From positions 64,001-128,000 of the IMG/VR virus record IMGVR_UViG_3300050343_000117: a stretch of 64,000 bases of DNA, one strand, 5' to 3'. Positions 3,901 to 23,600 of the stretch are shown here, one piece after another (position 1 is the first letter of the stretch; the number at the start of each line of letters is the position of its first letter). This stretch comes from a virus. The translations under genes and the position numbers were made by a program. Below the pieces are notes generated by a model. It did not search any database, was not told the DNA's origin, and was given only the letters and a program-made list of their open reading frames with translations.

Positions 3901-6900
3901 TATCATTTTCAGCAGTAGTTAGTCGACCAGAGTTAGCAGAGATAAGACCGTCTAGGTCTGAATCTGCACCTTGGAATGCACTAACGATTTCTGTCAATGA
4001 GTCTAGAGCAGCACCGTCTTCGTTAGATACGATGAAGTCAACACGAGTTTCTAGAGTTGTTAGGTCAGTAGTCAGTACGCCTTCAGCAGCTGTTGCACGT
4101 ACTACTTCCGCATCCAACTGTGATTGTAGATCAGCAACATCTGTTCCTTGTAGATTTTGCAGTGCAAGGATATCAGAATCGTTTGCAGTAACCTGTACCT
4201 GAACACTATCTACGTCTGTACGTAGACCTGCTTCAATACCTTCCGCACGGTTCTTTTCAGTAACAACAGCAGCGGCATTAACACCTTCTGCGGCAGTTGC
4301 ACGGTTGACTTCAGCAGTGATTTGTGCTTGGTTGTCTGAGTGATCAGCAGCTTGCAATACTTGTAAAGCAAGAATGTCTGAATCATTTGCAGTGATTTGT
4401 GATTGGTTAGAGTCGACATCTGTACGTAGACCAGCTTCGATACCAGTTGCACGTGTAGTCTCTGCAACAACAGCATTTGCGTTTACTACTTCAGCAGCAG
4501 AGGCGCGAACAACTTCTGCGTCCAACTGAGTTTGTAGGTCAGCAACATCTGTACCTTGCAAGTTCTGTAGAGCAAGAATGTCTGAGTCGTTACCAGTTAC
4601 TTGAGTTTGTAGAGAATCCACAGAAGTCTGTAGACCTGCTTCAACACCACCGGCTCTTGCAGTTTCAGCAAGAATCTGTGCTTGTAGGTCTGAGTCTACT
4701 GCGTTGAAGTCATCTTCAACAAGATCTAAACGAGTACTTAGAGCGCCTTCTGCAGCTAGTGCACGAGTACGTTCTACGTTGATATCACCTAGGTTAGAAG
4801 AGATGTTAGCGATGTTAGTGTTTACGTCTGCACGTAGACCCTGTTCTACCGCTTCTGCACGTTGCTTTTCAGTAACGACTGCGGCCGCGTTAACGACTTC
4901 TGCAGCTGATGCACGAGTAACTTCTGCCGTGATTTGATCCTGTAGATCATCAACGTCGATTGTAGTGTTTGCATTCAATGCATCGATCTGACCTTGTAGG
5001 TTAGTATCGCCTGATGCACGAGCAACTTCTTCTGCACGTAGGTCGGTTTCATTCTGTGAAGAAAGAACCTGAACTGCGTCCATCTCGCCTTCTAGTACAG
5101 TAGTACGTAGAGCGACTGCTTCTTCAGCTGCTTCAGCACGTGCTTTTTCAGTTGCAACTTCTGCATCTGTGTAAGCATATGATTGCGACTTAGCAGTTGC
5201 AATTCGAGAAGTAACGGTGTTTCCAGCAGTACCATCTACAGATGCGTCACCGATAAGTGCGGCGTCTTGTGCATCAGCGTGTGCAATTGCAACAGCCTGG
5301 TGCGAGTCAGCTTCTGAGTCAGTGTATGCTTTTGCTTCAGCAAGAACGTCGTCTTTTTCAACTTGAATGTCAACGTTGATTTGATCAATCTGAGACTGTA
5401 GACCAGTGTCAGCAGTTGAACGAGTTGATGCTTCAGTATTGATGTTAGTTTGTAGAACACCTTCCGCTGTTTCTGCACGTAACTTCTCAGTTGCGATTGC
5501 AGTAGTGTTAGACGAAATAAGTGCAGACATGTCTGAATCAGATGACTGGAATGCGCTAACGATTTCTGTTAGTGAGTCTAGAGCAGCTGGATCAGTGTTG
5601 TTTGTAATGAAGTCAACTTGTGATTGTAGGTTTGCGTCACCAGCAATACGAGCAGCTTCTTCTGTATCGATGTTACCCTGTAGAGTAGTATCACCCGCAG
5701 CACGGTCAATAAGTTCTTGATCGATACGTGCGTTGATGTCTGAGTCTTCATCTTTACGTTCTTGGTTTTCGATTGCTACAGAATTGCTTGCTTCAATGAT
5801 TGCTTCTGCTTTTGCAGTTGCGATGCGGTCAGTAACAGTATTAGATACAGTACCGTCAACACTTGCATCACCAATCATTAGTGCGTCTTGTGCTTCAGCG
5901 TGTGCCTTAGCAGCTGCTTCAGCAGTAACAATGTCAGCACCTAGATCAGCGCGAACCTGTGTATCTGCAACAGCACGTGCAAGAATTTCATCTGTGATGT
6001 TCTGCGCGTTTGCAGCTTCTGCACCAGTAGCACGAGTAACTTCAGAAGAAATTGCAGCTGTGTTAGCATTTTCTGCGTTAGTTGCGCGAGTGACTTCAGC
6101 AGTAATCTGTGACTGTAGAGAAGTCGATAGACCTTCTTCAGTAGAGATACGTGCAGAAAGTGCAGCCTCAGCACCAGTAGCGCGAGTTGTCTCTTGACCA
6201 ATCTGAACAGCAAGTGCTGATTCAGCAGATTGTGCACGAGTGATCTCGACACTAACACGGTCATTGATTTCTGTTTCTTTATTAGTTGCACGAGTAACTT
6301 CAGCAGTAATTGCGGAAGAGTTTGCAATAATTGAAGCAGATAATGCGTCATCTGCATCTTCAAACGCTGCGATGATTTCTGCAAATGAATCTATCGCGTC
6401 TGAGTCAGTATTGTTTAGTAGTAGATCAATACGACCAGACAATGCAGTATCAGCTGACTGATATGCAATTTCAATTGCGTTTTCACGAGCAGTTGCACGT
6501 GTTACTTCTGCGTCAATGTTAGATTGTAGTACAACATCCGCTGACGAACGAGTAGATGCTTCAGCGTCAATGTTAGTCTGTAGTAGTGTTTCTGCGACTG
6601 TTGCTCGATTAGTCTCTACTGCTACCGCACTTGCGATATCAGATGCAACAGCAGTCTTTGCTCTTTCAGGTGTGAAATATTGGTTAGCCCCTTCTTGCAA
6701 GTCGTCCGTAGTGAACGATGCGAAGAATGCGTCTGCACCAATCTTCTTTAATGAGTCTGAATTGACATCATAGAGAAGGGTGAAACAATCCGCTGGATTG
6801 ACCATACCTGTAAGGGTTGATTGTCCCTGTACTGCACTTTCATCTAGCTTGGTATTAAGTACCGCTTTATCAGCTAGTGCAGGGGATTTAATCTGCCTAA

Positions 6901-6907
6901 ATGCCAT
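989..6907 (-). CDS. Very long coiled-coil fibre/whisker-like virion protein (1972 aa)
   Basis: Ala/Glu/Asp/Thr-rich coiled-coil repeats (AEVTRATAAE). Four (L/I)DSxxEIxxAF knobs and a YadA-neck-like VSGVATGTDAADAVNKGQM. C-terminal YRSAKYVV...HNGTDAFITEYG domain typical of marine T4-like structural proteins. Confidence 0.8.
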   Translation of the reverse strand: MAFRQIKSPALADKAVLNTKLDESAVQGQSTLTGMVNPADCFTLLYDVNSDSLKKIGADAFFASFTTDDLQEGANQYFTPERAKTAVASDIASAVAVETNRATVAETLLQTNIDAEASTRSSADVVLQSNIDAEVTRATARENAIEIAYQSADTALSGRIDLLLNNTDSDAIDSFAEIIAAFEDADDALSASIIANSSAITAEVTRATNKETEINDRVSVEITRAQSAESALAVQIGQETTRATGAEAALSARISTEEGLSTSLQSQITAEVTRATNAENANTAAISSEVTRATGAEAANAQNITDEILARAVADTQVRADLGADIVTAEAAAKAHAEAQDALMIGDASVDGTVSNTVTDRIATAKAEAIIEASNSVAIENQERKDEDSDINARIDQELIDRAAGDTTLQGNIDTEEAARIAGDANLQSQVDFITNNTDPAALDSLTEIVSAFQSSDSDMSALISSNTTAIATEKLRAETAEGVLQTNINTEASTRSTADTGLQSQIDQINVDIQVEKDDVLAEAKAYTDSEADSHQAVAIAHADAQDAALIGDASVDGTAGNTVTSRIATAKSQSYAYTDAEVATEKARAEAAEEAVALRTTVLEGEMDAVQVLSSQNETDLRAEEVARASGDTNLQGQIDALNANTTIDVDDLQDQITAEVTRASAAEVVNAAAVVTEKQRAEAVEQGLRADVNTNIANISSNLGDINVERTRALAAEGALSTRLDLVEDDFNAVDSDLQAQILAETARAGGVEAGLQTSVDSLQTQVTGNDSDILALQNLQGTDVADLQTQLDAEVVRASAAEVVNANAVVAETTRATGIEAGLRTDVDSNQSQITANDSDILALQVLQAADHSDNQAQITAEVNRATAAEGVNAAAVVTEKNRAEGIEAGLRTDVDSVQVQVTANDSDILALQNLQGTDVADLQSQLDAEVVRATAAEGVLTTDLTTLETRVDFIVSNEDGAALDSLTEIVSAFQGADSDLDGLISANSGRLTTAENDIDAVEVRATDLEARATAVEGRATSLEAGQVVQNGRLSVNEADIDSLQAKQGTGGFHTTAQTVVGAVNEIHGELDVEAGNVDLLQSEMDVAEGRLDGHDSDFTAIQGRATSLEGRATTLEGRATALETKQGSAALQTVATDLSAAINELHAEIDGEAADLTSLEARVTTEEANVDTLQSEMDAVEGRATSLESRMTTEEGHVDTLQTQMGTSTLLTVATDVTAAVNELHGQADSNTGRVGTLEVEMDAVEGRATSLETRASALETEQTLQGGRLTVNEADIDALEAKVGSSTETLDTVSQTLVGAINEVHGETDTNTSGLAAAVARADADSDALVSEIADRIAADSQIRIDLAADRVTDQTDYIARDAVVLASAQTYAENEADDAEVAAKTYADGIVANEATLRENADDVLDGKITTEATARANADNALDSRTTVLETEMSATQLGAGLATDGTYVAPTTTNYIDASTSLADADKKLDAAIKAVDNTRNSGINNLQSQIDAEIARATAAEGVLTSDLATEVTRATDAETALGVLITTNATAISDESSRAQGVEGSLQTQIDFITSNTDSAALDSLTEIVAAFQSADGSLAGLVAQNQTDIATNASGLAQEITDRVAGDNAVRGEFAAADAALQTQIDGRVQKSGDSMTGDLAMGGNKVSGVATGTDAADAVNKGQMDAGLAAQHISQFSTDDLVEGTKKFFSDALSRASVSLTDVAGEGKASYDQSTGVFSIDTAKTMLELADVADSDYDGKNGYVLRVNNTLDGMSLQDPTQLAFNNAQRQTMSGDGAQSTFALNFYTQDQNAIVFVGGVIQDPSVHYSIDAANQTITFNAALPVGTQAVVIAQSTNSVGVLDPKSVGLETLADNIKVFEQGNDVVAGTSATVVSAFNKTTYRSAKYVVTTELNGEFETRECLVIHNGTDAFITEYGILYTGSSLLGDTDVQVNGSSVELTYTAVDAGAVVSVSATYVDA
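4080..4600 (-). repeat. Tandem 204-nt (68-aa) internal repeat, about 2.5 copies
   Basis: NDSDILALQ..LQxQLDAEVVRA..AE recurs; DNA anchors at 4167, 4371 and 4575 are 204 nt apart. Confidence 0.85.
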
Positions 6908-6968
6908 TAGGTTATCTCCTAGGTTGAGTTTATTGGTTTTGGGATATAATTAAACGTTTAATAATATA

Positions 6969-7328
6969 CTAACGAAATTTGATGTATATGTCCGTCCCTT
7001 GCGGGGGGATCTCAAAAAATTGTATAGTATCGTCGATGGTTTCATAGATTTCTTCAGGATGCTGAAGAACGTCGTTCACCCACACATCAATCAAATCATC
7101 ACGAGTTGGCGTACCGTTCAATTGAAATAGCGCAGTGTCGCCCTGAGCAGTGATCGATTGTGCTTCAGGAATCACTGTGCGGTCATTGGTTGATGAAGAG
7201 GTACCTTCGATATAATCGAATAGTGCAGTTTCTTGGCCAGGAGATGCTGAGACTTGATCTTGCTTTTGTTTCGCAAGATTAAATAAACTCTCTGCAAGTA
7301 CCCTGTTAAAGGACTTATTATTGATCAT
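6969..7328 (-). CDS. Small virion structural protein
   Basis: GDTALFQL...VWVNDVLQHP..Y beta domain, similar to those in the neighbouring fibre proteins; late promoter upstream. Confidence 0.65.
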   Translation of the reverse strand: MINNKSFNRVLAESLFNLAKQKQDQVSASPGQETALFDYIEGTSSSTNDRTVIPEAQSITAQGDTALFQLNGTPTRDDLIDVWVNDVLQHPEEIYETIDDTIQFFEIPPQGTDIYIKFR

Positions 7329-7365
7329 ATTGATGAGATACTATAGAATGGTTAATATACCCATT

Positions 7366-7373
7366 TATTTATA
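7366..7373 (-). promoter_or_regulatory. T4-type late promoter TATAAATA
   Basis: Exact consensus upstream of 6969..7328. Confidence 0.75.
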
Positions 7374-7404
7374 CGTGAAATGTTCTTCACTTTAGGGTTT
7401 TTTA

Positions 7405-8283
7405 CTATTGTCTGAATTGTAGTAATTCTTGTAACAGTTCATTAATTTCCTGTAGGTCACTATCTAACCCATTTATTCTAGCATGTAATGCATCTATTTC
7501 AACTTGAGTGGCGACATTGCTACCATTTAATGTATAAGGACCAGAGAGTTGAACTCCCGCGTCATCCATAACAAGTCGATCATCATTTTGATACTGCATT
7601 TTAAACTGACTATCATTGAAACCTAAATGTTTAATGATTGTGTCAGTACCATTATGATAAAAACGAGTTTCTTCGTTGGTGCCCACAATAAAGGCAAAGT
7701 GGTCATCTATGATGAGGTCGTTTCCAAAAGAAACGCCTGTGGAGTTGTATGCGGCAACTTGAACTACCTGTTCATCGTCTACCACATGGGTTAGGGAGAT
7801 AGTACTCCCGTCATCTGCAACGTAGTCTATTCCTTGATGGAGTAAGACACCGTTGAGATATACTTGAATTCTTGATGGACTGTTCGGATCTGGATCGTAT
7901 TGTAATACGTTGCCAGCGTCGTCTGCACCCGTTATGACTTCGAGTGTTCCATCTGAGGTGAATATATATGCGTTGAATGTAGTTGTCGCAGAGAGACTCT
8001 CATCTCCTACAGCGCCAATCTCTACAATTGTTTGAATACCGCCGTCATACTCTCGTTTGATATAGAGTTTGCCGTCCTGAGTATTTATACCAATTTCGCC
8101 TAGTTTTAGTTCTTCGATACTGGGAATATCACCAAGACCGTCAAATGTCTTGATGTTTGCACCAATGTTCTGAACAACATTACTAATAGGACGACCGACA
8201 GTAACTCGTTTGACCTTGGTTCCTGAACCAAACCCATTAATTGATGTTACTCCGGTTACACCACTGACTCTTCGTATAGGCAT
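7405..8283 (-). CDS. Virion structural/fibre-associated protein
   Basis: LGEIGINTQDGKLY motif (hyaluronidase/Mtd N-terminal-like), VYLNGVLL...DY domain and C-terminal coiled coil. Confidence 0.65.
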   Translation of the reverse strand: MPIRRVSGVTGVTSINGFGSGTKVKRVTVGRPISNVVQNIGANIKTFDGLGDIPSIEELKLGEIGINTQDGKLYIKREYDGGIQTIVEIGAVGDESLSATTTFNAYIFTSDGTLEVITGADDAGNVLQYDPDPNSPSRIQVYLNGVLLHQGIDYVADDGSTISLTHVVDDEQVVQVAAYNSTGVSFGNDLIIDDHFAFIVGTNEETRFYHNGTDTIIKHLGFNDSQFKMQYQNDDRLVMDDAGVQLSGPYTLNGSNVATQVEIDALHARINGLDSDLQEINELLQELLQFRQ

Positions 8284-8287
8284 GGTA

Positions 8288-8647
8288 TTACCTTGTTACC
8301 GAAGGATTGACTTTGATCTTACCTTCTAGTATTCTTTCTATAATAGTATGTCCGTCCACATCGACGAAGCTTATTTCCACATCATAAACATATCTACCGC
8401 GAGTGGATAGAACGTCAGTCTGTAGATTGGTTAGGGATATTGTAACGATACCTTCTAGGGAAGGTGTAGGAATGACAGCAGTGAAGTCGATCGACTCAGC
8501 ACTTCTGTAAGTTTTTTTCATTTTGGCTGCTACTGAATAACCAGTAAGGTCTTTCTGTGAACCATCGGGATTCACCAACTCTATTTGTAGAGCTAGGTCT
8601 GCGCCTTGGTCAATTGTAAAATCTTCGTAAGTAGCCATAATCCTCAA
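8288..8647 (-). CDS. BppU-like Ig-fold virion protein
   Basis: IDQGAD...DLTGYS...GRYVYDVEI...RILEGKIKVNPSVTR, a pattern common in marine T4-like phages. Confidence 0.65.
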   Translation of the reverse strand: MRIMATYEDFTIDQGADLALQIELVNPDGSQKDLTGYSVAAKMKKTYRSAESIDFTAVIPTPSLEGIVTISLTNLQTDVLSTRGRYVYDVEISFVDVDGHTIIERILEGKIKVNPSVTR

Positions 8648-8678
8648 AACCCTGAACTGTTTATAAAACGTCTTCCTC

Positions 8679-8686
8679 TATTTATA
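8679..8686 (-). promoter_or_regulatory. T4-type late promoter TATAAATA
   Basis: Exact consensus upstream of 8288..8647. Confidence 0.75.
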
Positions 8687-8713
8687 ACAGTTCAAGGTTA
8701 GAAGAAAATCTTT

Positions 8714-9421
8714 TTAGTCTTCAGATTCAATATCTGAAAGGACCATTGCACGGAAACCTTCAGATGCTTCTGAATGATCAAAAACATATGATACCGTGAC
8801 GCGCCAATCGTCTGTAGACGCAGCGTGATACATTACTTTATCTGTCTCACCATAGTGACCAAAGTATGCTGCCTTACAAGTCCATTTACCTGGCTTGTCT
8901 TGACTACGAATAACTTCTTTAGTCTCTGGGTGAATGTACTCAAAGTAACCTGAACCATCTTCTGAATAAGAGAAGATTAGGTTATAGCCTGGCGCATTTG
9001 CATTGTTGTGCCATGAGATGAATCCTCCTGGCGGGTATACTGCTGCAAGTGCATTATGTTTGACAGACAAAAAGTTCATCATTTTGTCGTTTAGGTCACG
9101 CAAGTGATGAGTCATATCGCGTTTGAAAATTGGATCAGCATCCTTCTCAAACATCATATGCGCTTTGTCAGAAAGTTTAAAGTTGTAACCAACTAGTTCG
9201 TCTGGGAACCCTTCGTGACCTTGACCTTGAGCAACAATCTCATCCATATGCTTAGGTCCAACAAAGTATGGACGCTGGCGAATGTGTTGTGCAGAGGATA
9301 GGTGACAGTTCTCTTCGAAACCTTTCATGGTATGCAACTTGGCGTATTCGTTTAGAATCTCTAGCAACTCAGGATTGTTTACCTGTACGTGCCTTAGATA
9401 TGAGTCGTTTACCTGTGTCAT
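8714..9421 (-). CDS. 2OG-Fe(II) oxygenase-like (double-stranded beta-helix) protein
   Basis: YPPGGFISWHNN...MYHAA...WRVTVSY gives His-x-(Asn)...His...Arg-x-Thr spacing of 2OG oxygenases. Confidence 0.65.
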   Translation of the reverse strand: MTQVNDSYLRHVQVNNPELLEILNEYAKLHTMKGFEENCHLSSAQHIRQRPYFVGPKHMDEIVAQGQGHEGFPDELVGYNFKLSDKAHMMFEKDADPIFKRDMTHHLRDLNDKMMNFLSVKHNALAAVYPPGGFISWHNNANAPGYNLIFSYSEDGSGYFEYIHPETKEVIRSQDKPGKWTCKAAYFGHYGETDKVMYHAASTDDWRVTVSYVFDHSEASEGFRAMVLSDIESED

Positions 9422-10155
9422 ACGATTGGAGTATCCTTGTTTAACCCTGCCGAGAAGTGACGCAAAATCACTGGACCCGTTTCAGGTTGTGTGATTGCCC
9501 AGTTCAGGGCGTTGTAATAATTCCACCTCAAGTCGTCATCAAAGATACCAACTTTGAGGTCCTTATATTTCTCTTCTTTCTCGACTAACCACCAGAGAGA
9601 AAATTGGTCCCAAGATTTGAGACTATCTACATACCCTTCCGGCCACCAAGAATCATTCATCTGTCTGAATGTTAAGTCCCACCAGTCATCCATAAATTCA
9701 CGAACAATTGGTTTAGACATATCATATAAACAAACACCACCGCATAGTGTGAACTTAGATTTACCTTCTGGCGTATCAAAGTCTCTTTCTGCGTAAATAT
9801 AATCACGATCATCTGTCAATGCTGAGAAGACCAAATCATGGTCTTTCATTTCATCCCAAACCTTGACGATGTCTTCGTGCTCACATTCCATATCAGCATC
9901 AATGTACATTGTCAAGTCATACGGAGATTTTGCCATCCCCCATAACTTAGCGCGATAGTGGTCGTCACAAAACATAATATCATCTGCAACATCTCTACCA
10001 CGATCATCAAGAAATCTTTCTTCTGTTACCAAACAAATCTTACATTCCTCTTCAGGTTCATAATAATCCCGAATAGACTCTGCAAGATTGATTGCGTACA
10101 AATAAAAGTTGCGTTTCTTGGACGCAACAATTATGAATCCTTTAGTCTTTTCCAT
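9418..10155 (-). CDS. GT-A fold glycosyltransferase (GT8-like)
   Basis: SPYDLTMYIDADM (DxD), WDQFSLW, RWNY, ILRHFSA. Confidence 0.75.
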   Translation of the reverse strand: MEKTKGFIIVASKKRNFYLYAINLAESIRDYYEPEEECKICLVTEERFLDDRGRDVADDIMFCDDHYRAKLWGMAKSPYDLTMYIDADMECEHEDIVKVWDEMKDHDLVFSALTDDRDYIYAERDFDTPEGKSKFTLCGGVCLYDMSKPIVREFMDDWWDLTFRQMNDSWWPEGYVDSLKSWDQFSLWWLVEKEEKYKDLKVGIFDDDLRWNYYNALNWAITQPETGPVILRHFSAGLNKDTPIV

Positions 10156-10603
10156 TAGTCTCGGCCTCTAGTTGGTCTTGTAAAATCATAATTGAGTACA
10201 TATCGACTTCAATCTTAGACTTTGCACGACGCAATTTTGCCTTCAACTTACGGTTCTTAGAGTTCTTAATCTCTTCGACTTCGAACGCTTCCATCTTATA
10301 ATTGAAGAGTTTTTCTAGTTTACGTGCCTTGTTATGTTCTTCGTCACGCATCTTCTCTTCTTCTGCTTCTGCCTTCTTTCGTTCAACACGGTCAACAGTT
10401 TCCTTGTCAATCGAATCTTCACCTAGGGCATCAACAACTTCATTAAACAGTTCGTTCTCACTACCATCCTTATCATGACGGTGTAAAAACATTTGTTGTC
10501 GTGTGACACGACCCATATCATCTTCAAGTTCTAGAATACAGTTTAGTTCTTTCTTTTCTTCCGTTTCCCAGAACGCATTATCCATCCATTGTTTACGACT
10601 CAT
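10142..10603 (-). CDS. Hypothetical highly charged protein (possible fibre chaperone)
   Basis: 153-aa ORF overlapping the start of the glycosyltransferase, directly downstream of the 1580-aa repeat gene. Confidence 0.6.
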   Translation of the reverse strand: MSRKQWMDNAFWETEEKKELNCILELEDDMGRVTRQQMFLHRHDKDGSENELFNEVVDALGEDSIDKETVDRVERKKAEAEEEKMRDEEHNKARKLEKLFNYKMEAFEVEEIKNSKNRKLKAKLRRAKSKIEVDMYSIMILQDQLEAETNGKD

Positions 10604-10651
10604 TAAATATCTCCAGAGAGTTCAATTCAAATTATAATGTATATAGTGTTG

Positions 10652-10680
10652 AGATAAAGCGGGTCAAATGAATGACCCGC
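10652..10680 (-). terminator. Probable intrinsic terminator after the 1580-aa gene
   Basis: GCGGGTCA-6nt-TGACCCGC followed by TTTATCT on the minus strand. Confidence 0.6.
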
Positions 10681-10712
10681 CTTGTTCTCATATTATACCA
10701 TACTTAGGTTGA

Positions 10713-13700
10713 TTATGCAACCCTACAGTATAGAGTATAAGTTTCTGGTGTATGTACTAGAGTGTCGCTAATCGTTGCACCAACATAGTTACCTAGGAAG
10801 GAACGTGAGTAGTTGCCACCGAAGTTACGTGAGTAATCACCTGTAAACGTACGTGAGTAGTTACCAGTGAAGTCACCTACGTATGTAGATACACGATCAC
10901 GTGAGTAAGTACCTGAGTATGCAGAACTACGGATTCTTGCGTAAGCAGAAACCCTTACACGTGAGTAGTTACCTACGAAGTCGCGTGAGTAGTTACCTAC
11001 GAAGTCACCAACAAAATCACGGGCATATGTACCAGTGTATTCACCAGCATATGCTCTTGAGTAGTTACCAGTGAAGTCACCAGCAAAGTCACGAGTGTAC
11101 TGACCGGAGAAATCACGTGAGTAGTTACCTGTGAATGTGTTAGAGTAAGTACCAGTGTACTCACCAACGAATCCACGAGCGTAGTTTCCTACGTAGTTTC
11201 CACCGAAGTTACGTGAGTAAGTTCCGGAGTAAGCGCCAGTGTACTCACCAACGAATCCACGTGAGTAAGTTCCAGCATATTCACCAGTGAAAGTACGTGC
11301 ATAGTTTCCTACGTAGTTTCCACCAAACTGTCGAGTGTAATTACCAACATAGTTACCAGTAAAGTCACCAACATAATCCCCAACAAAGTTACCCGCATAG
11401 TTACGAGAGTATTGTCCGGAGAATGTGCGTGAGTAGTTACCTGTAAAGTCACCAGCAAAGTTAGTTACACGATCACGAGTGTATGCAGATGAACGGTTAC
11501 GTGTGTAAACCGAAACACGAGTCCTTACATATGCAGAGTAACGAGTACGCGTTGAAGTACGAGTGTACTCACCAGTATAGTTACCAGCGTAATCGCCAGC
11601 GTATCCACGAGCGTAGTTGCCTACGAAGTCACCAGCATACCCACGTGCGTAGTTACCCACGAAGTTACCAGCGAAGTTAGTTACGCGATCTCTTGTGAAG
11701 TCACCAATATAGTTAGTCACACGTGTACGAGCGTAAGCAGAACCACGGTTACGAGTCGAAGTACGTGTTGAAGTACGAGTAAAGTCGCCAACATAGTTAG
11801 TGATACGAGTACGAGCATATGCAGAGTAACGAACGCGAGTAGAAGTTCGAGTTGAAGTTCTTGCGTAGTTACCTACGAAGTTACCAGCAAAGTTAGTTAC
11901 ACGGTTACGAGTAAAGTCGCCAACATAGTTAGTGATACGAGTACGAGCGTAAGCAGAGTAACGAGTACGTGTTGAAGTACGAGTACTAGTTCTTGCGTAG
12001 TTACCAACATAATCACCGGCATAACCTAGAGTACGTGTGTAGTCACCTACGTAATCACCAGCATAGTAACCAGTACGAGTGTAGTAACCAGTCTCAGTAC
12101 GAGTACGAGTACTAGTTCTTGCGTAGTTACCAGTATAGTGACCAGTGCGTGTACGACCATAGTTACCAGTGTAAGCACCAGTACGTGTACGAGAGTAATC
12201 TCCGGCATATGAGAACGCACGGTTACGTGAGTAATCTCCAGCAAAGTTACCTGTAAAGTTAGTTACACGATCACGTGAGTAGTTACCCGCATAAGATGCG
12301 TTACGTGTACGAGAGTAGTTTCCTACGAAATCACCGGCATAAGATGCAGCACGGTTACGTGAGTAATCTCCAGCATAAGATGCATTACGTGTACGTCCGT
12401 AGTTACCTACAAAGTTTCCGGTATAGTTAGTAGCACGAGTACGACCATAGTTACCAGTATATGTTACGCCACGAGTGTAGTTACCAGTATAGTAGAATGT
12501 TGAATTACGAGTACGTGTGTAGTTACCCGCGAAACTGGTTGTTCTGGAATATGTCAAGTTACCTACGAAGTTACCAGCGAAGTTACCAGCATAAGATGAA
12601 CCACCCGATTGGTAAGTAACACCATAATGTGATACGAATCCATTCGTGTTTCTCCAAACAGCACGATAATATGTTACACCGCCAGCAGTCAGAGATGTTC
12701 CGTTTCCTGTCATGCTTCCAACTATAGATCCATTAACATAAACGGTAACAAAATTGATTCCACCTTCATTATCCGAACGCCAACCTGTAGTTAACGACCA
12801 GTTATTTCCGGAATATGCGTTGGTTACGGTACCACCAGCACCAGTAGAAGTACGTGTGGAAGTACGCGTTGATGTTACTGTACGAGTATAGTTTGAAGTT
12901 GCTACACTGTTACGAGTATAGTTACCAACATATCCCGTTCCGTTAACAGAGGTTCTAGTATAGTCAAGTGTTGCAGCACGTCCTCTAGAGTAATCACCAA
13001 CAAAGTTACCTGTGAAGTTGGTTGCACGAGTACGTGAGTAGTTACCCGCATAAGATGCGGCACGAGTACGTCCATAGTTACCAGTATATGTTGCATTACG
13101 TGTACGTGTTGATGTACGAGCATAGTTACCGACATAAGATGCGGCACGAGTACGTCCATAGTTACCTACGAAGTTGCCTGCGTAGTTAGTAGCACGAGTA
13201 CGACCATAGTTACCAGTATAGTGACCAGTACGTGTACGTCCGTAGTTACCGACATATGAGAATGCACGGTTACGAGAGTAATCACCAGCGTATGAGAACG
13301 CACGGTTACGAGAGTAGTCACCTACGTAGTTTCCAGCATAGTACAATGTACGAGTATATGCTAGTGTACGTGTTGATGTACGTGTTGAAGTACGTGTATA
13401 GTTGTATGTTTGGTAGCGAGTACGTGTTGAAGTTCTTGCGTAATTTCCCACATAATCGCCAGCATAGTTACCAGCATATCCACGAGCATAGTTACCAACA
13501 AAATCACCTGTGAACGTTGTTGCATAGTTACCAACAAAATCACCAGCAAAGTTAGTTACACGATCACGTGAATAGTTACCTACGTAATCACCAGCATAGT
13601 TACCAGCGTATCCACGTGCGTAGTTACCAACAAAGTCGCCAGTAAATGTGGTTGCATAGTTACCTACGTAATCACCGGCATAGTTACCAGCAAAGTTACG

Positions 13701-15455
13701 TGCATAGTTTCCTACGAAGTTACCAACGAAGTCACGAGCATAGTTTCCTACGAAGTTACCGGCAAAGTTAGTGACACGGTCACGTGTATATGCAGAGTAG
13801 CGAGTACGAGTTGACGTACGAGCATATGCTGAATAACGTGTACGAGTAGATGTACGAGTAGAAACGCGAGCGTAGTTACCAACATAATCACCTGCATAAC
13901 CACGGGAATAGTTACCTACGAATCCACGTGAGTAGTTACCCACGAATCCACGAGCATAGTTTCCTACGAAGTTACCGGCAAAGTTAGTGACTCGATTGCG
14001 TGTGTAAGTAGAAACACGTGCACGAGAGTAAACGCCTGCAAAGTTAGTTACACGGTCACGTGTATAATTGGTAATACGAGTACGGGTGTAATCAGCAGAG
14101 TATGCTGAAGTACGAGTACGAGTATAAGTCCCTGCGTAAGCAGATACACGGTTGCGTGAATAGGTACCGGCATATGCAGATACACGGTTACGAGAATAAG
14201 TTCCAGCGTAAGTTCCAGTGTATGTTGATACGCGTGTACGAGTGTAGTCTGCTGAGTAAGAAGAACTACGTGTACGTGAGTAAGTACCTGAGTAAGTTGA
14301 AACACGACCACGAGTATATGCAGATGTGCGAGTACGTGAGAATGTTCCGGTAAATGGTGTGACGCGGTTTCGAACATATGTAGAAACACGTGAACGGTTG
14401 TAAGTACCGGCAAAGTATCCAGTAAATGCAGTTAGTCTATTACGTGTATATGAAGATACGCGTGTTCTTGCATAATTACCTACGTAATCACGTGAATAAT
14501 TACCTACGAAGTCACGGGAATATGCACCAGTGTAGTTACCAACAAACGTACGTGCAAATGTGTCCACACTGTTACGTGTGTAAGTAGAAACACGGTCACG
14601 TGAGTATGCAGAAACCCTAGTACGAGTGTAAGCTGAGTTACGTGTACGAGAGTATGCAACGTCGACAATAGTACGACGGGTGTTAGAGGCAGAACCTCGT
14701 GGTACCCATGTACCTGCCAAAGATGGTGCGCCTTGTGCAGATGAACGCAACTGGTATGAACCAATCGCACCTGCTGTAGATCGAAGTGATTTAGCACGTT
14801 GACCAAGTGTGTACTTGATTTCCGCGTCGGTCATAGACTTCAGACCATTGAATGATGTACCATCATAATCTGTTGCGACTGGACGTGTAGTAACTACACC
14901 AGCTGGTGGAGTTGCAAGTGCAGTTCGTTTCCAGATATGATATTGAGTTGTTGTACCATCACCATGTGTATCGGCAAACACATTCTCGATGTGCTTAGTC
15001 CAATCACTACCTGGCGAGGTAGTTGAAAGTTCGAATGCACCTTGAAGACCTAGAGTCTCCATGTTTTTTAGTGCACGGTTTGTCAGATTATCCAAATCCC
15101 CATCTACCATTTCGTAGAAGCCAGGATTTGCGTTATCTGCGTAATAACCGACAGGACGGGCAAAATCAGAACCAGATTCACTCGCGGAACCAGCAACCTG
15201 TTTCAAGGTTGTAGTTACACTTGTGCCAGTGATAGCAGACATTGGGTGTGTACCCGCTGGTTCATTGTAGTACGTATCTACAAAAGAACCGATGTTTGTA
15301 CCATTGGTTAGACTGATGTCACCGACATCACCAGCGGAGGCCTCCGCTAATGCTTCACCCACTTTTACAGCAAGATACATCTCTTCTGCTGGAGTGAATT
15401 CCTGTAGGTCACCATCGGTATTTTTAATTTTTAGTGGTATACTAGATGCTGACAC
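10713..15455 (-). CDS. 1580-aa tetrapeptide-repeat fibre; predicted giant intramolecular beta-hairpin
   Basis: 267-aa N domain, 606-aa repeat arm, 81-aa central domain, 606-aa mirror arm and 20-aa tail; late promoter upstream. Confidence 0.85.
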   Translation of the reverse strand: MSASSIPLKIKNTDGDLQEFTPAEEMYLAVKVGEALAEASAGDVGDISLTNGTNIGSFVDTYYNEPAGTHPMSAITGTSVTTTLKQVAGSASESGSDFARPVGYYADNANPGFYEMVDGDLDNLTNRALKNMETLGLQGAFELSTTSPGSDWTKHIENVFADTHGDGTTTQYHIWKRTALATPPAGVVTTRPVATDYDGTSFNGLKSMTDAEIKYTLGQRAKSLRSTAGAIGSYQLRSSAQGAPSLAGTWVPRGSASNTRRTIVDVAYSRTRNSAYTRTRVSAYSRDRVSTYTRNSVDTFARTFVGNYTGAYSRDFVGNYSRDYVGNYARTRVSSYTRNRLTAFTGYFAGTYNRSRVSTYVRNRVTPFTGTFSRTRTSAYTRGRVSTYSGTYSRTRSSSYSADYTRTRVSTYTGTYAGTYSRNRVSAYAGTYSRNRVSAYAGTYTRTRTSAYSADYTRTRITNYTRDRVTNFAGVYSRARVSTYTRNRVTNFAGNFVGNYARGFVGNYSRGFVGNYSRGYAGDYVGNYARVSTRTSTRTRYSAYARTSTRTRYSAYTRDRVTNFAGNFVGNYARDFVGNFVGNYARNFAGNYAGDYVGNYATTFTGDFVGNYARGYAGNYAGDYVGNYSRDRVTNFAGDFVGNYATTFTGDFVGNYARGYAGNYAGDYVGNYARTSTRTRYQTYNYTRTSTRTSTRTLAYTRTLYYAGNYVGDYSRNRAFSYAGDYSRNRAFSYVGNYGRTRTGHYTGNYGRTRATNYAGNFVGNYGRTRAASYVGNYARTSTRTRNATYTGNYGRTRAASYAGNYSRTRATNFTGNFVGDYSRGRAATLDYTRTSVNGTGYVGNYTRNSVATSNYTRTVTSTRTSTRTSTGAGGTVTNAYSGNNWSLTTGWRSDNEGGINFVTVYVNGSIVGSMTGNGTSLTAGGVTYYRAVWRNTNGFVSHYGVTYQSGGSSYAGNFAGNFVGNLTYSRTTSFAGNYTRTRNSTFYYTGNYTRGVTYTGNYGRTRATNYTGNFVGNYGRTRNASYAGDYSRNRAASYAGDFVGNYSRTRNASYAGNYSRDRVTNFTGNFAGDYSRNRAFSYAGDYSRTRTGAYTGNYGRTRTGHYTGNYARTSTRTRTETGYYTRTGYYAGDYVGDYTRTLGYAGDYVGNYARTSTRTSTRTRYSAYARTRITNYVGDFTRNRVTNFAGNFVGNYARTSTRTSTRVRYSAYARTRITNYVGDFTRTSTRTSTRNRGSAYARTRVTNYIGDFTRDRVTNFAGNFVGNYARGYAGDFVGNYARGYAGDYAGNYTGEYTRTSTRTRYSAYVRTRVSVYTRNRSSAYTRDRVTNFAGDFTGNYSRTFSGQYSRNYAGNFVGDYVGDFTGNYVGNYTRQFGGNYVGNYARTFTGEYAGTYSRGFVGEYTGAYSGTYSRNFGGNYVGNYARGFVGEYTGTYSNTFTGNYSRDFSGQYTRDFAGDFTGNYSRAYAGEYTGTYARDFVGDFVGNYSRDFVGNYSRVRVSAYARIRSSAYSGTYSRDRVSTYVGDFTGNYSRTFTGDYSRNFGGNYSRSFLGNYVGATISDTLVHTPETYTLYCRVA
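10776..12593 (-). repeat. C-terminal arm: 148 tetrapeptide units plus 7 dipeptide inserts (1818 nt)
   Basis: Same length as the N arm, with inserts at mirror positions. Confidence 0.9.
12837..14654 (-). repeat. N-terminal arm: 148 tetrapeptide units plus 7 dipeptide inserts (1818 nt)
   Basis: Units of type YxRx, RxSx/RxTx, STRT and (Y/F)xG(N/D), counted by hand. Confidence 0.9.
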
Positions 15456-17112: not shown

Positions 17113-20100
17113 GATAGATTCCCTAGCTTAACTCTAACTCTAGAGACTTCAACATTATTTTCAATAACAGTATCACTAATTGTGATAAGATCGTTAGTAA
17201 TTGACATACTACCTTGTCCGGCTACACTAGATGTTATATTTAGACCAGTGTCTCCCGCTTGGTAACTATCTGGATCAGTTGTAATAGCAACTAAACTTGC
17301 ATCGATTCTACCCGTGGTAATATGACCACCATCAATAGTTGTGATTAAAGCTGATTGCGGATTACCTAACTCTTGGTTCATGTTTTGGAAAGTAACCAAG
17401 CCATTGAAGTTGTAACTACGGAATGCAGCACTTACTGAGACTGTTGTAGCACCATTCTCTCCGGAGGCCTTTTCTGCAAAGTATCTAGCAGCCCATAACG
17501 TACCCGATAGATTAGTTCCCACTGTAGGATCCATTCCCCAGTTACCATTCAATCCGGTGATTGAACCGCCATCCGAATCATCCCAAGTAAATCCTAGTGC
17601 TGCGCCGGCTGCGTTGTAAGAAGGTTGTAGTCCCGCGGCTAGAGTATCTTGTTCCGCTTCAATTTCGGTGTAGTAATATACGTACCCACGAGATTCTCTA
17701 GGTAGATTTTCTAAGTCCGGAGTTCCTGAATCACCATCGATAGAGTGGATAACTGGACTTGTCCATGTTAAATCATCATCGATTCCTTGTAAGTCACCCT
17801 GAACTGTAGCTACCGCACGACTCATCCATAGTGCATTACCTAGTGTACGATCTTCTTGTGGAGTTTCTGACCAATCAGAAGGTAGTCCATACATTCCATC
17901 GTTATCAAAATCATAGTAAACACTCCCGCTTGGGTCATTGTTTGTAGGTAGAGTCCCTATAATGCTTGATACGGTCGCAGTAGAAGAATCTCTCTTAAAG
18001 ATCTGTACCTGATATGTCGAGAAACCGTCCGCACCGTTATTGTGATCTAGGTAAGGAGCAGACCATGTTGCAGTGTTGTCTGTACCCTCATCACCACTGA
18101 TAGAGAAGGTTGCTTCAGACGCCCATATAGTACCACCTACGCCTACGTTATATCCCGCAGCGTCCATAAGACCCACATCGTCATACCATGTATGATCGGT
18201 TGCAGTAGGCATTACTTTAGCGATACCACCCGTGAAGTTAACACTACCACCTGTAGGAGTATTTGGGGCACTAGCACTTGGTGTTCTGGTTACCGCAACA
18301 ACGTGCGCAGTAGATCGGCCAGGTGCACCATTACCGCCCGACTGAGTTGCATTTGGGAGATCCCATTCTATTTGAGTATCTTCTACCAGAGGAGTAGTTG
18401 CTGTTGGATAGTTGTCTGGTCGAGTTGACGCAACACCTGTAATGACGTATAATTGACTATCACCTGTTGGTACTGTTTTAGACCAATCTGCAGGCGGTGT
18501 AAATGTTTTAGTTTCGAAGTTAAATGATCCGCCAGACACGGCAGTGGATGTAGTCCAACTACCCGCACGACGGTATGCATTAACCTGTGTGACTTGATAT
18601 CCATCGATACCATCAATCGCAACATTAAGAATTAGTTTTGGTGTAGTAAATGTTAGAGTATTATCTGCACCGATCGCACCACGAAGAGTAGCGACTGTAC
18701 TGATCTCCCATAGTGGACCATTGCTTTCGTCGTTACTATCGAACAACGGCGGCATCTCTTCTGTCCAATTGATACCTTCACGTGAAGGTAAACTTGTAAA
18801 TCTGTTTAATGTAAAGTCATACACCGCACCATTTCCCGCATTGTTTGCTGGATTCGGTAGAATGTATTTAGCCTCTGTTAAGTCTTCATGTGATCGCGCA
18901 TACAAAGACTTGAAGTATGTTGATACTGGAACGATCGACTGAATCGTAGGTTCTGACCAATCAAGTGGCGTACCTGTAGATGTTCTGTCGTCTGTAGCCC
19001 AGTCTTCGCCGGTATCACCAAACTGTGTGAATAAGTGATATGACTGCCATAGAGTATCTGTACCAGATGGTGGTGTTGAGTACCATTGGTTACCCGAAGA
19101 ATCTGTAATAGGGAATCCTAGATGAACCCCTGCTGGAGTGGCTGCACCGAAATCGATACCACCACCACGTGGCTCATCTGGTACAACTAAATCGTTGTTG
19201 GCGTCTGCGGTATCTGGTACGCGACGATATGCAACCGCTAGGAACGTGGACCTACCATCTTGACCGTCTGTACCTGAAGATGTTGGTCGTGGATCTCCCC
19301 ATGTGATCGAAGTATCAACTGTATTACCTTCTGCAAGATCTACATCACTTGCAATACCTGTTACAACATACAGTTGAGGAGTTTCGTCGGTACGAGGTGG
19401 GGGTGTGCTTTCCCATCCAGCATCTACCGATGCAGTTACCTGTTCTTCATCTGGTGATAAGTAAATTCCTGTAGAGAAATCAAATGTACCACCCACTGGA
19501 GCATCAGCTGCGCCAAGTGTCGTATCGCTTGCAACTCTCTTATATGCAAATATCTGTGCATACTTAGCTCCCGCACTGTTATCTACTGGAGTTGACTGTG
19601 ATCCTACAAGTGATGGATCTGACCATGTGCCTGCGTTTACGGTTACGTCTGGGTCAAGCGTAATAAAGGTTGTAGTAGACGCGCCAGACATCTTCGTTTG
19701 CTGGAGTTGAAGGAATACTTCTGTACCAGTTTGGACCCGTAGGTTCTACAAAGTTTCCGGTCGAAAATGTATATGACCCATTGTTTGGTTTTGTAGGGGT
19801 AGTCTCTTTTGGAGAACGTGCGTATACTGTGACTGTGTAGACAGATGTACCACCACCGCCAGTGCCACCACCGGATTCATCATCCGATATCCAAATAGAC
19901 CCATTCCATTTTAATACCTGACCGATAGTTTTACCTGTGGTATTAACATCACCCATATCGTCCAAGTTGGATGGTATAAATGGTCTATTAGTTAGACTAT
20001 TATAGTCTCCATCAAAATCACTAGACCCAGAATCGCCTTTGTTCGCAAGTTCTACCCATGAATTATTGTGCGCAAAATATGCGGCTCCAGTATCATGAAC

Positions 20101-20397
20101 ATGGGCAAACATACCGTGATAGGTAGATGCATTTGGTAGGTCTGACACTGACTGGTACATGTTGCCAAACAAAACTTTATTGCCGGACATATCCAAGTCG
20201 GAACCTTCGATGATTGCACGGACTGCAGCGGCATCAAGACTCAAGTCTAGACTATCGATCGCAGCCTGAATCAATGCATTGACTTCGGCCTCTGTCATCT
20301 TAGACGTATCTATCTCAGCGAAGTTTTGATTGATCTTTAAAATCGCGGCGTTGATGTTGTCTGCAAGGTTGACTACTTGTATGTTATTGTTGCTCAT
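17109..20397 (-). CDS. Tail fibre/host-specificity protein, about 1095 aa, split by an apparent 1-nt insertion near 19684
   Basis: ORFs 19654..20397 and 17109..19691 join as NEDVW|ASTTTF. Repeated P.GG.FDF...W...PP...LW...W..P modules, TTIDGGHITTG and C-terminal RVRVKLGNLS. Confidence 0.75.
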
Positions 20398-20632: not shown

Positions 20633-23600
20633 TTAGTAATGAAAGACTAGAGCATTATCTTCTGATTGCCAAGAAGGGGTTACTGATCCACCCGCATCTC
20701 TATATTCATCTGTGTATCGAATACCGATCGGTATATCCAACCAATCAAAAGTCTCACCACTGTGAGTAGTGGATAGGTTGACACTATAGTTACCTGAAGC
20801 TTCAGAAGTAATCGTGTTCACAAACTCTGTACCATAGTTCATAGTAACAGTACCCGTAGTAGACCATTCCGGACCAAATGTGTATGTTATTGGATAGTAG
20901 TGTGTGTTATGACCTTCTGGTCTTTCGATCCCGTAAGTTATGAATCTAACATCATGTTGAGTACCATTTACAGATGAATCCGTTTCAATATATATTGGTT
21001 GAACTGTTGCTTGACCTTCTGCTTCTGAGGTCATTTCTGGACTATATGGATAAATTGCGTGGAAGTCTCGACCACTTTCCCAATATACGCCATCATGAGC
21101 GACAGCTACAACGATGCCTTCGTCTGTATCGACCGTCATACGGTCTCCAACAGGCAAGTCATAATTGAACGTGAGTGTTTGGATGATATCGCCAGCTGGT
21201 TCATACAAATCACCACCAAATGCCTCACTAGTAGGTGGAGACAATCTAATGTCCATCTCTACAGTACCAGTATATGGTGTGGATTCACTAACACCCGACA
21301 TATCGGATTCAACTAGAATGAACCCTGTGCTACCCATTTCGCCCCTTTCAGAGACCGATAAATTAGTTGCAAAACTGTCACCGACATGATCGTAGGTTGT
21401 TTTGTTTCGAAGTACCGACACACCGTCACTTGTGTGAGACATGAGCGGATCATTCGGATCATTATCATTAGGTATTTCATAATCGTTGATTTTTTTCAGG
21501 GTGCTTGTAATTCCAAATCTTTCTAGATAGTCAAAGAAGTTATTATCTGGACCGTCAGTAAATTGTTGAATAGGTCTATCCAACCACTGACTAGTATGCA
21601 CTAGAGTTCGTGTTCCAACATCCGTAGCGTTTACTTGACTATAGACTTTCAACGATCCATCAAGGTGGAACTCAAGATTGAATCTGACTCCTCTAGGCTC
21701 CCAACCAGATGTACCTGACCACTCTCTACCCACATCGCGGCTACTTGCTGATATTGTTGGAACGGTCTCAGCGAAAAGCGAACTTATGTCTCTGACCTCA
21801 TTGGTCTCGCTTCCGGTGTCGGTATTAGTTTCGCCACCTGTATTAGTTTCGCCGCCGGTGTCTGTATTAGTTTCTCCGCCGGTGTCTGTGCTACTAGTAG
21901 TGTCTGTACTACCACTATTGTTACTTGAACTTGATGTGGTAGTAGTACCTGTGGAACCCGAACCTCCTGTTATCAGAGCGATTGCACGTAAGTCTTTAAT
22001 TAAAGGAGACTTAGAAGAGTTCTCTGAATGCATTACAATCTTAATCTGGAATGCGGTAAACTGTTCTGACTCATGAGTATACTCATACTCTGGGAAATTA
22101 GATGGGTTGTCGCTTGTAGGAATTGCTCTGTCTATATCAACCTTTACCCATTCGTGTATGGATTCTCCTTCTACAGCAGTAGATGCTACCAAGGTGTCTT
22201 CGTCTGGTGCTGTCTTAACATAGACTTCAAAGTCAGAACCAGATGGTCGGTTACCTGAAAATATTACCTTCAGACCAAGTGAGGACTCATCAACAACAAC
22301 TGGTGTTGTGATGTGTTGCGCAGCATATGCAAACGTGGTATAATCCGGTGTATCTGTATTAGGATCATATACATCGTGATCAATTACGTTTTCTAGTGTC
22401 ATAACCGCAACACGTTGAAGGTCAATTACAGGAGAAACTTTTGGATCTGCTGTGACCAATGATAGGTTCAATTTTAACGTTTCAGTAGATACGTTTTCAG
22501 AAGAAGCAACAATCTTTGGTAGAGAGTTCAAATTATATTCATTTACAAAGACCGGAACTTCGTCCTGTAACGTGTATACAAACTGATCTGTTGTACGACT
22601 GTCTGAAGAAGAACCATAGGATTTTGCGACAGGCGCAATCAACCCTGCATTTATTTTAGTAGTGTTAGGTACTACTGCTTGGATCTGTGGCACGAACGTA
22701 TCATAGTAGACTTGCTGTGAAGCGATAACCGCATTACCACCACCAGATGAACTAGCGCTTGCTACAGTAGGAACCTTAACATAATAACCGTCCCATGTTG
22801 GTTCATATACTTCAAGTAGACCGTTCATTTCTGAAGCGGGAACTCCACCAATATCATTGACAACGCCTGAGATAGAAACTATATCTTCGTCACTGAATCC
22901 GTGACCTTGATGATAAATCTTTACTATTCCGTTGTTAGCAATATCATCTGTATGAGTCAGACCGGCAACAGTTTCAATAGGATTAAATTCTAATGTGACT
23001 TTAGGTAAAGGTGCATTATCTAATACTAAATTACCTGATGTTTCAAAATTAGCTCGATGTAACTTGAACATCAAGTCTTTACTTTGATCTGGTGTCCATG
23101 TGCTAGAGTTTTGAGATAAGAATAATGAACCTAGAGTAGAAATTCTTGGAGCCTTATCTTGATTACTACCTATGACAAACTCTTCTGATTCCGAAATATA
23201 TACGTTATACTCTACGGATTCACTGAATAATATTATCGCATATTCTTTACCACCTGTCAAGTAAATCGGTTCGTCAAACTCAACAGCAGTTGCGCCAGTA
23301 GTCACTAGTGTATTCATTCCTTCGTTTTCACCTGAAATAGAATCATATGAAGTGACAGTAACATCATCGGAATTGACAAACACAACTGAGCCTGGAACGA
23401 CCTGATTGGTAGGAACTCCATTCTCTACCGTACGAATCTCAACCTGTAGTGGAGCAGTACTATCCTTAGACTCCATGAATACGTCTAGCTGAGTTAGGAA
23501 TATACCGTTAGGGTTTTCAATCTGGTCAACGAAGAATGTCTGCGCTAAAGGATCATTACGTCCTTCACTTCTGTAGATTCTTCTAGTAGTATCGATATTA

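Follow-up and report, generated by a model that had tools for sequence, protein, structure and literature searches.

Background

Known phage fibres are parallel trimers, built as triple beta-helices, beta-spirals, coiled coils or collagen. A chain that runs out, carries a domain at the turn and folds back is found in the antiparallel coiled coils of SMC, Rad50 and MukB and in the alpha-helix/polyproline stalk of streptococcal antigen I/II, and among phage fibres an out-and-back chain path was reportedly described in the gp37 trimer of phage T4 by Bartual and colleagues in 2010. Here we analysed a stretch of 64,000 nucleotides of viral DNA (positions 64,001 to 128,000 of IMG/VR virus record IMGVR_UViG_3300050343_000117), referred to below as the window, in which one gene on the minus strand encodes a predicted fibre protein of 1580 residues. 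This protein, from a marine T4-like myovirus, is probably built as one giant beta-hairpin, in which the first arm of the chain would be paired antiparallel with the second.

In T4 gp37, according to PMC6957217, the collar domain consists of residues 811-881 and 1010-1026, with the needle and its seven histidine-bound iron atoms lying between them. The window protein resembles the gp37 tip in having a base split between two separated pieces of chain, an out-and-back beta path to the tip and an associated chaperone. The gp37 needle is about one tenth of the size, with approximately 130 residues against approximately 1300 in the window protein. It is an iron-stapled trimer of interwoven chains, whereas the window protein has no His-x-His repeats and only one histidine in each arm. 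The gp37 needle also ends a conventional fibre. When the full-length window protein was compared with every PDB chain by phmmer, no match was obtained at E<=1. The window protein differs further in its pairing code of period 4/8 and in its base, which is predicted to be a single-chain beta-prism and not a gp37-like collar. The initial annotation knew of no described phage fibre of this kind. That statement has to be narrowed, as the gp37 tip has the same topology at about one tenth of the scale; of the family itself and its architecture, no description was found in full-text searches of largely open-access literature.

Several other systems share single properties with the window protein. SMC, Rad50, MukB and antigen I/II have arms matched in length and register as here; those arms are helical, whereas beta strands are proposed here. 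The single-layer beta-sheets of OspA and SasG have no conventional core and are stabilised by cross-strand side chains, and aromatic-over-glycine and cation-pi contacts are favoured cross-strand pairs in antiparallel sheets. The same favoured pairs occur in the window protein, but the OspA and SasG sheets are tens of residues long and do not have two coded complementary arms. The evolutionary signature is formally that of RNA stem-loops, with reverse-complementary halves, mirrored compensating changes, bulges and a variable loop; RNA pairs bases, whereas the "pairs" of the window protein are classes of side chains.

Organisation of the fibre gene

The fibre gene and its parts are as follows.

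10713..15455, minus strand: whole gene, predicted fibre protein of 1580 aa, with a GTG start at 15455 and the stop codon at 10713-10715
14655..15455, minus strand: base domain, residues 1-267, non-repetitive, predicted MABP-like beta-prism
12837..14654, minus strand: arm 1 (putative outgoing strand), residues 268-873, 606 aa, period-4/8 repeats
12594..12836, minus strand: central domain at the proposed turn, residues 874-954, 81 aa, non-repetitive
10776..12593, minus strand: arm 2 (putative returning strand), residues 955-1560, 606 aa, complementary to reversed arm 1
10716..10775, minus strand: C-terminal tail, residues 1561-1580, 20 aa, ending in ETYTLYCRVA, conserved

The arm limits of the initial annotation (residues 268-873 at 14654-12837 and 955-1560 at 12593-10776), with 606 residues in each arm and 81 in the centre, are exact. 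Its count of 148 four-residue units plus seven two-residue inserts sums to 606, and this sum and seven phase slips fit the sequence; the units were not re-parsed singly. The open reading frames (ORFs) of relatives open with a start region matching that of the window ORF, and the gene is present as a single copy in the 137-kb virus record.

The arms consist mainly of T, R, Y, G, A, S, N, V and F, arranged on two alternating faces. In arm 1 the even positions hold Y/F, R, G or S, and the odd positions T, A, V, N, S or D. The two arms also have directly repeated blocks in common. Shadow ORFs of 80-120 codons lie in other frames of the region (14048-14413, 14504-14806, 12902-13159 on the minus strand, and others); these are by-products of the repeats and not genes.

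Antiparallel register between the two arms

Mutual information (MI) was calculated between residue i of arm 1 and residue k-i of arm 2 for every k. The maximum was found at i+j = 1827 (MI 1.095 over 605 pairs), the register expected from the initial annotation, followed by k = 1825 with a value of 1.094. The background over registers with at least 300 pairs has a mean of 0.69 and a standard deviation (sd) of 0.055, placing the peak about 7 sd above it. With arm 2 block-shuffled (block sizes of 2, 4 and 8 residues), MI was 0.57-0.58 +/- 0.03, and the observed value was reached in 0 of 1000 shuffles at each block size. A twisted two-stranded ribbon with diagonal contacts would account for the peak at 1825, as would a second neighbouring strand; conditional mutual information did not distinguish the latter from correlation inside the repeat units.

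A direct-repeat relation of the arms was rejected as the main signal, being much weaker than the antiparallel one: parallel end-to-end comparison of the arms gave an MI of 0.54, and their direct alignment scored 108 versus 636 for the antiparallel alignment. When gaps were allowed, the fold-back alignment of the window protein remained a single ungapped block of 607 pairs, joining residues 266-872 with 1561-955. A simple count of coinciding aromatic residues was non-discriminating, even for the window protein.

At k = 1827 the pairs include Y-R (104), R-G (57), Y-G (29), F-T (20), F-G (17) and F-S (17), whereas Y-Y, R-R and G-G pairs are all absent and Tyr-Phe pairs number three; block shuffles contain about 86 same-class pairs on average and never fewer than 38. 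All arginines of both arms (168/168) have Tyr, Phe or Gly as their partner. On the small-residue face, identical residues tend to be paired (N-N 22, T-T 16, A-A 14, V-V 13). From this pair table it follows that, as the initial annotation had read by hand, YxRx units lie opposite YxRx, RxSx opposite FxGx, and runs of STRT opposite runs of YxGx. The mirror placement of the seven inserts was also borne out, each of the seven two-residue Tyr/Phe phase slips of arm 1 opposing a slip of arm 2. When seven slips were placed at random against seven among 155 unit boundaries, none of 200000 trials matched them all within two units.

The symmetry was compared with that of the DNA. The fraction of complementary bases between the arm-coding regions is 0.18-0.34 at the symmetric registers, against a background with a mean of 0.25 and a maximum of 0.354, and the repeat finder detected only three inverted repeats, each of 16-17 nucleotides. 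A DNA palindrome as the cause of the pattern is ruled out by these base-complementarity fractions and by the absence of inverted repeats longer than 17 nucleotides. With no complementarity at the DNA level, we therefore conclude that the symmetry exists in the protein only.

Equal arms and mirrored indels among homologues

Matches to the N-terminal domain were found in 73 IMG/VR loci, 49 of which carry a complete gene, giving 39 distinct proteins of 453-2282 residues. In a library of 1.84 billion proteins the N-terminal domain matched 359 clusters (50% identity) at E<=1e-3. The only named phage match is C48C1 (OQ984149.1, Kyanoviridae, with no host given in the record), whose homologue is a 3347-residue "hypothetical protein". 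All 39 complete homologues end with the motif ETYTLYVRxA, and tail residues Y1573, T1574, L1575, Y1576, R1578 and A1580 are invariant in 30 of 30 aligned tails. No Pfam or PHROGs family was found above threshold for the full protein or for its N-terminal domain, and only unnamed viral clusters were found for it in the ESM Atlas.

To score the register of each complete homologue, a pair matrix was derived from the window protein. Of the 39 proteins, 31, ranging in length (L) from 1130 to 2282 residues, have their best antiparallel register between L+244 and L+249, where the peak is 1.7-8 times as high as the best score at other registers (at least 3.5-fold for 29 of them). The arms therefore remain equal over a more than two-fold range of arm length. 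Of the eight exceptions, five are short or distant (L019, L020, L065, L069, L075), one has an offset of +268 (L050) and two have a large insert (L061, L062).

Gapped fold-back alignment gave a single ungapped block of 576-662 pairs in seven homologues besides the window protein. With the window protein and C48C1 included, the spans of the two arms are exactly equal in 19 of 41 proteins, over 20 to 946 pairs, and across this set the lengths of arm 1 and arm 2 correlate with r = 0.98. Against block-shuffled arms the alignment z value is 13-33 within the close clade, 7-8 for L070 and L065, 4 for L075 and 2 for L019.

The arginine rule holds in each of the seven ungapped homologues in its own register (178/178, 167/167, 167/167, 162/162, 161/161, 155/155 and 174/174). 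Nine further blocks gave 96-100%, including 116/116 in C48C1; these gapped blocks were picked by a matrix that penalises R-R pairs, and only the ungapped blocks are free of such bias. Taken together, all 16 relatives' blocks follow the rule at 96-100%, and 14 of them do so at 100%. Off-register controls of the same parity have means of 54-64% and do not exceed 89% in long blocks, values of 96-100% being reached only in the blocks of about 100 pairs of L070 and L065.

Insertions and deletions (indels) were located by ordinary global alignments of the window protein, taken as the reference, with its close relatives. Same-sized indels were found in pairs at mirror positions. In L005 an insertion of 28 residues after residue 809 is accompanied by one of 28 residues after 1018 (809+1018 = 1827). 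L021 carries four such pairs (-16 at 608 with -16 at 1196; -2 at 679 with -2 at 1142; +2 at 732 with +2 at 1094; and -4 at 754 with -4 at 1070), and L008 has +2 at 731 paired with +2 at 1094. Both L051 and L027 have +72 near 327-331 paired with +72 at 1488, and L027 also has +20 at 492 paired with +20 at 1332. Less clean pairs occur in the slip-rich inner region, for example -14 at 670 against +14 at 1135 in L027, where the alignment is ambiguous. These compensating indels, together with arms that stay equal over a two-fold range of length, are what the initial annotation had anticipated for homologues.

Two giant relatives carry larger inserts. In C48C1 the alignment of arm 1 (residues 265-1297) with arm 2 contains six gaps, of 114, 54+120, 162, 177, 46 and 269 residues, which coincide with globular inserts seen in the sequence, and a 408-pair ungapped block adjoins the turn; L061 has one globular insert of about 230 residues. 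Judged from their sequences, the globular inserts of arm 2 in these two proteins (114-269 residues) align as bulges. The globular domains of C48C1 (locus L002, gene at 1012-11055) and L061 (gene at 1302-7607) are inserted in the putative returning arm only, and the domains at residues 1800-2050 of C48C1 and 1465-1705 of L061 have motifs in common (WDVSNQDA..., YLYYSTDTSTNQQF). A block of about 85 residues occurs in tandem around 1990-2140 of C48C1, which may reflect a true duplication or an error of assembly.

The central domain is hypervariable, with several unrelated knobs among the relatives. L042 has two tandem knobs (residues ~840-1010), and L070 has no knob but a glycine-rich turn, AGGGKGGNA (residues ~660-700). 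Since the knobs are not conserved, locating the central domain of relatives by BLOSUM alignment was unreliable. A distant family member of 422 residues, P0087, has another repeat "dialect", in which about six octads of the form NFxGVRxV precede five of the form NFxGPQPQ, which suggests that other subfamilies may use other pairing rules.

Predicted structure of the base, tail and knob

The base was modelled through a natural 436-residue mini-homologue, P0061, whose N-terminal domain is 41% identical to that of the window protein. AlphaFold2 (66-row alignment) gave a mean predicted local distance difference test score (pLDDT) of 79 and a predicted template modelling score of 0.71, with pLDDT 90-98 in the N-terminal domain and 92-98 in the last 27 residues. 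The model has helices at 22-37, 116-132 and 220-235, and each is followed by a hairpin, at 55-64/80-88, 150-163/169-180 and 260-294/398-434 respectively. The third hairpin is long, and the limits of its strands sum to 692-694, which equals 1827 in the window protein when the two are placed in equivalence by the invariant GTW motif (G248 in the window protein, G258 in P0061) and by their aligned C-termini. The base domain is thus predicted to consist of three helix-plus-beta-hairpin repeats, the third hairpin continuing into the arms.

Comparison of the P0061 model with 48161 PDB representatives by VIA-align placed four MVB12-associated beta-prism (MABP) domains at the top: 8b6v_A of Mp2Ba1 (Z 7.0, 120 aligned residues, root-mean-square deviation 3.5), 2qp2_A of Plu-MACPF (6.6), 3tow_A of MVB12B (6.0) and 6sb1_A of the perforin-2 P2 domain (5.1), the next match having a Z of 3.0. 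The aligned range of P0061 was 43-436, with the C-terminal strand included. These modest Z values predict an MABP-like beta-prism for the base; Foldseek found no match of the P0061 model in the PDB at E<=0.001. MABP domains have a three-fold internal repeat in common with the base, but no extended hairpin, and neither sequence nor Pfam ties them to it. As parts of MACPF and ESCRT proteins they function at membranes rather than in virions.

Contact between the ends of the window protein was modelled with ESMFold2, residues 1-330 and 1497-1580 being given as two chains, each with its own alignment. As these are pieces of one polypeptide, the result concerns contact and not binding in trans. The interaction prediction score from aligned errors (ipSAE) was 0.88, against 0.00 for the best of three controls; 0.88 is reached by 58 of 80 solved complexes and by 2 of 110 mismatched pairs, which are rough counts given that custom alignments were used. 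Contact agreement between runs was at least 71% and the pLDDT of the partner at least 56. No similar solved complex was found by sequence (phmmer against PDB chains). In the contacts of lowest error, the C-terminal strand lies between strands 232-238 and 248-256, and the contacts 250-1577, 251-1576, 252-1575 and 249-1578 each sum to 1827. The confident interface reaches residues 278 and 1548, corresponding to the first dozen pairs of the arms. That both termini lie together, with the variable domain at the tip, is supported by the register signal, by the equal arms and mirrored indels of the homologues and by this predicted insertion of the C-terminal strand into the N-terminal domain at i+j = 1827.

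Prediction of a centre-spanning truncation, another check proposed in the initial annotation, was informative for the knob but not for the arms. AlphaFold2 applied to residues 773-1054 (16-row alignment) gave a mean pLDDT of 44.5, with a confident, all-beta knob (~70-85) and no confident model of the arms. Low-confidence strands at 80-90 and 193-203 of this construct sum to 283, which is 1827 in the protein, and carry little weight. The knob has no clear fold match, its best VIA-align Z being 3.9 and Foldseek giving no PDB match at E<=0.001.

Genomic context

The following features of the window surround the fibre gene or are matched by related protein families.

8714..10603, minus strand: three overlapping downstream genes of 153, 245 and 235 aa
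15622..16062, minus strand: tail-fibre assembly chaperone, Phage_tail_APC (PF16778, E 1.3e-14; PHROG tail fibre assembly families)
19654-20397: fibre-related PHROG matches
27020-28411 and 34874-36727: baseplate-wedge PHROG matches
29937-33900, minus strand: two adjacent ORFs (963 and 363 aa) with very strong matches to collagen-like tail-fibre PHROGs

The gene belongs to a module of T4-like baseplate and fibre genes, and the chaperone gene is its immediate upstream neighbour. A homologue of the chaperone gene ends 0-400 nucleotides upstream of the fibre gene on the same strand in 55 of the 72 loci with enough upstream DNA. The three downstream genes are found within 3 kb on the same strand in 49, 49 and 45, respectively, of the 49 loci with a complete fibre gene. 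Pfam assigned no family above threshold to this trio, the 245-residue protein having a sub-threshold match to Glycos_transf_2 (E 0.019), and labels of glycosyltransferase and 2-oxoglutarate (2OG) oxygenase for the downstream genes were not confirmed by Pfam. The trio might modify the fibre or help in its assembly.

At 29937-33900 the G + C content jumps to 0.51 with a GC skew of -0.25 to -0.31. Two very large ORFs flank the fibre cluster, both on the minus strand: one of 1972 residues at 989-6907 and one of 1728 residues at 20633-25819, the latter matching phrog_358 of unknown function (E 7e-231).

Fold-back model and alternative arrangements

The model that we propose starts from the observed complementarity of the arms, their register, the compensated indels and the conserved neighbourhood. 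Residues 1-267 and the last ~20 residues would together form one beta-prism base with three repeats, and its third hairpin would be drawn out for about 600 residues. The chain would turn at the 81-residue variable knob and return antiparallel, so placing residue i beside residue 1827-i. One face of the ribbon would carry Arg opposite Tyr, Phe or Gly, and Tyr opposite Arg or Gly, never like opposite like; the other would carry small residues (Thr, Ala, Val, Asn, Ser, Asp). At the ~0.33 nm per residue of established beta-strand geometry, the 607 pairs would make a fully extended stalk of ~200 nm, which twisting or coiling would shorten. The clasp of the base and the first pairs of the stalk are predicted by the models; for the rest of the stalk we infer the ribbon geometry and the length, and likewise the position on the virion and the receptor binding. 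Going by gene context, the base would be attached to the virion; the knob, at the distal end, is a candidate receptor-binding tip. Length and tip may evolve through mirrored duplications and deletions in both arms and through replacement of the knob.

Physical antiparallel contact between the arms predicts the register signal, the arginine rule, the equal arms and the mirrored indels, which are otherwise hard to obtain, and for this reason we favour it. The fold-back proposed in the initial annotation thus stands as far as antiparallel contact over the full length of the arms is concerned, supported by register, indels and prediction; its lone two-stranded ribbon is left as a proposal. Pairing within one chain is the simplest reading, because the C-terminal strand is predicted to be clasped in the N-terminal domain, because repeats 1 and 2 of the base bear ordinary short hairpins at the equivalent place, and because one relative (L070) has a tight glycine turn at its centre.

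Several points weigh against this reading. The protein is known from sequence and prediction, and complementarity by itself cannot tell contacts within a chain from contacts between chains. AlphaFold2 gave a pLDDT of only 28-36 for the arms in the centre-spanning construct and 36-48 for residues 294-398 of P0061. Repeats of this kind have a high alignment background: with arm 2 shuffled the score is still 247, compared with 636 for the true sequence. The pair matrix was trained on the window protein and the relatives are its kin, which makes the matrix scores non-independent; the evidence from lengths and indels is independent of it. Applied to distant family members, the same matrix found a symmetric best register in only 4 of 114 representatives, with most scores negative, and the hairpin is therefore shown for the clade of the window protein only. 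Finally, a 200-nm ribbon lacking a conventional hydrophobic core would, to our knowledge, be unprecedented.

Among the alternatives, one keeps the fold-back and changes the stalk, and we regard it as possible though somewhat doubtful. Three or more hairpins would pack through their small-residue faces into a bundle, a six-stranded rod resembling an enlarged, metal-free gp37 needle, and some of the complementary contacts would then be between chains. Phage fibres are typically trimers, the gp37 tip reportedly has the out-and-back arrangement, and a tail-fibre chaperone gene precedes the fibre gene. The uniformly small residues of one face, paired like with like, are what a packing face might have, and the near-equal MI at 1827 and 1825 fits two antiparallel neighbours for each strand; however, diagonal contacts or correlation within units could just as well produce the second register. 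Also against a bundle, the base is predicted to be single-chain with three internal repeats, only one of its three hairpins being extended, and the arms have one histidine each and no His-x-His metal sites. We lean slightly towards the single-chain ribbon over the three-hairpin bundle. Pairing of the arms between two chains, in a head-to-tail dimer or a domain swap, would produce a rod of about double the length, carrying a base at both ends and the knobs midway along it. Complementarity and compensated indels are equally expected from it, and the ESMFold2 run used two separate chains; but in the single-chain model of P0061 it is the C-terminus of the same chain that closes the base, repeats 1 and 2 of that base are modelled as ordinary hairpins within the chain (strand gaps of ~15 and 5 residues), the knob of L070 is replaced by a glycine-rich turn, and a symmetric two-ended rod is ill-suited to a virion-attached fibre with a hypervariable centre. 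We therefore hold it to be improbable.

It is very improbable that the arms do not touch at all and owe their symmetry to some other constraint, such as separate solenoids or binding of a symmetric partner, combined with concerted evolution of the repeats. The directly repeated blocks common to both arms and the lack of a confident AlphaFold2 model of arm-arm contact would agree with such an explanation, whereas the far weaker parallel comparison (108 versus 636; MI 0.54) and the predicted meeting of the termini oppose it, and mirrored indels together with the arginine rule in 16 relatives are hard to explain without contact. A parallel beta-helix or solenoid with local contacts only was rejected, as the mirror register and the mirrored indels couple residues up to 1300 positions apart. 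Practically negligible, finally, is an artefact, in which the pattern would stem from an inverted repeat in the DNA, from a repeat array that is not coding or from a wrongly called ORF. The DNA is indeed highly repetitive, with several overlapping shadow ORFs; yet the arms have no reverse-complementarity in DNA, of the 73 loci, 49 keep the 4743-nucleotide frame open and conserved from its start to the C-terminal motif and the remaining 24 run off the contig, and the flanking domains are conserved across 359 protein clusters.

Taking the single-chain hairpin in its full form, namely a cross-strand code that zips one chain into a ~200-nm beta-ribbon rooted in a loop of the prism and evolving by mirror indels and bulges like an RNA stem, we judge it to be a close call, falling just short of even.

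Conclusions

The window protein appears to follow a different fibre principle, in which each half of a single chain recognises the other, residue against residue, along 600 positions. Should this be true, it would represent a new class of fibrous protein fold and a case of compensatory indel evolution in a protein. The cross-strand code would be a natural one available to protein designers and could provide a design rule for programmable beta-ribbon materials. For the phages themselves, it would mean a single-chain fibre of tunable length with its receptor-binding knob encoded in the middle of the gene, and the host-range determinant of many uncultured marine myoviruses would move to this swappable mid-gene knob.

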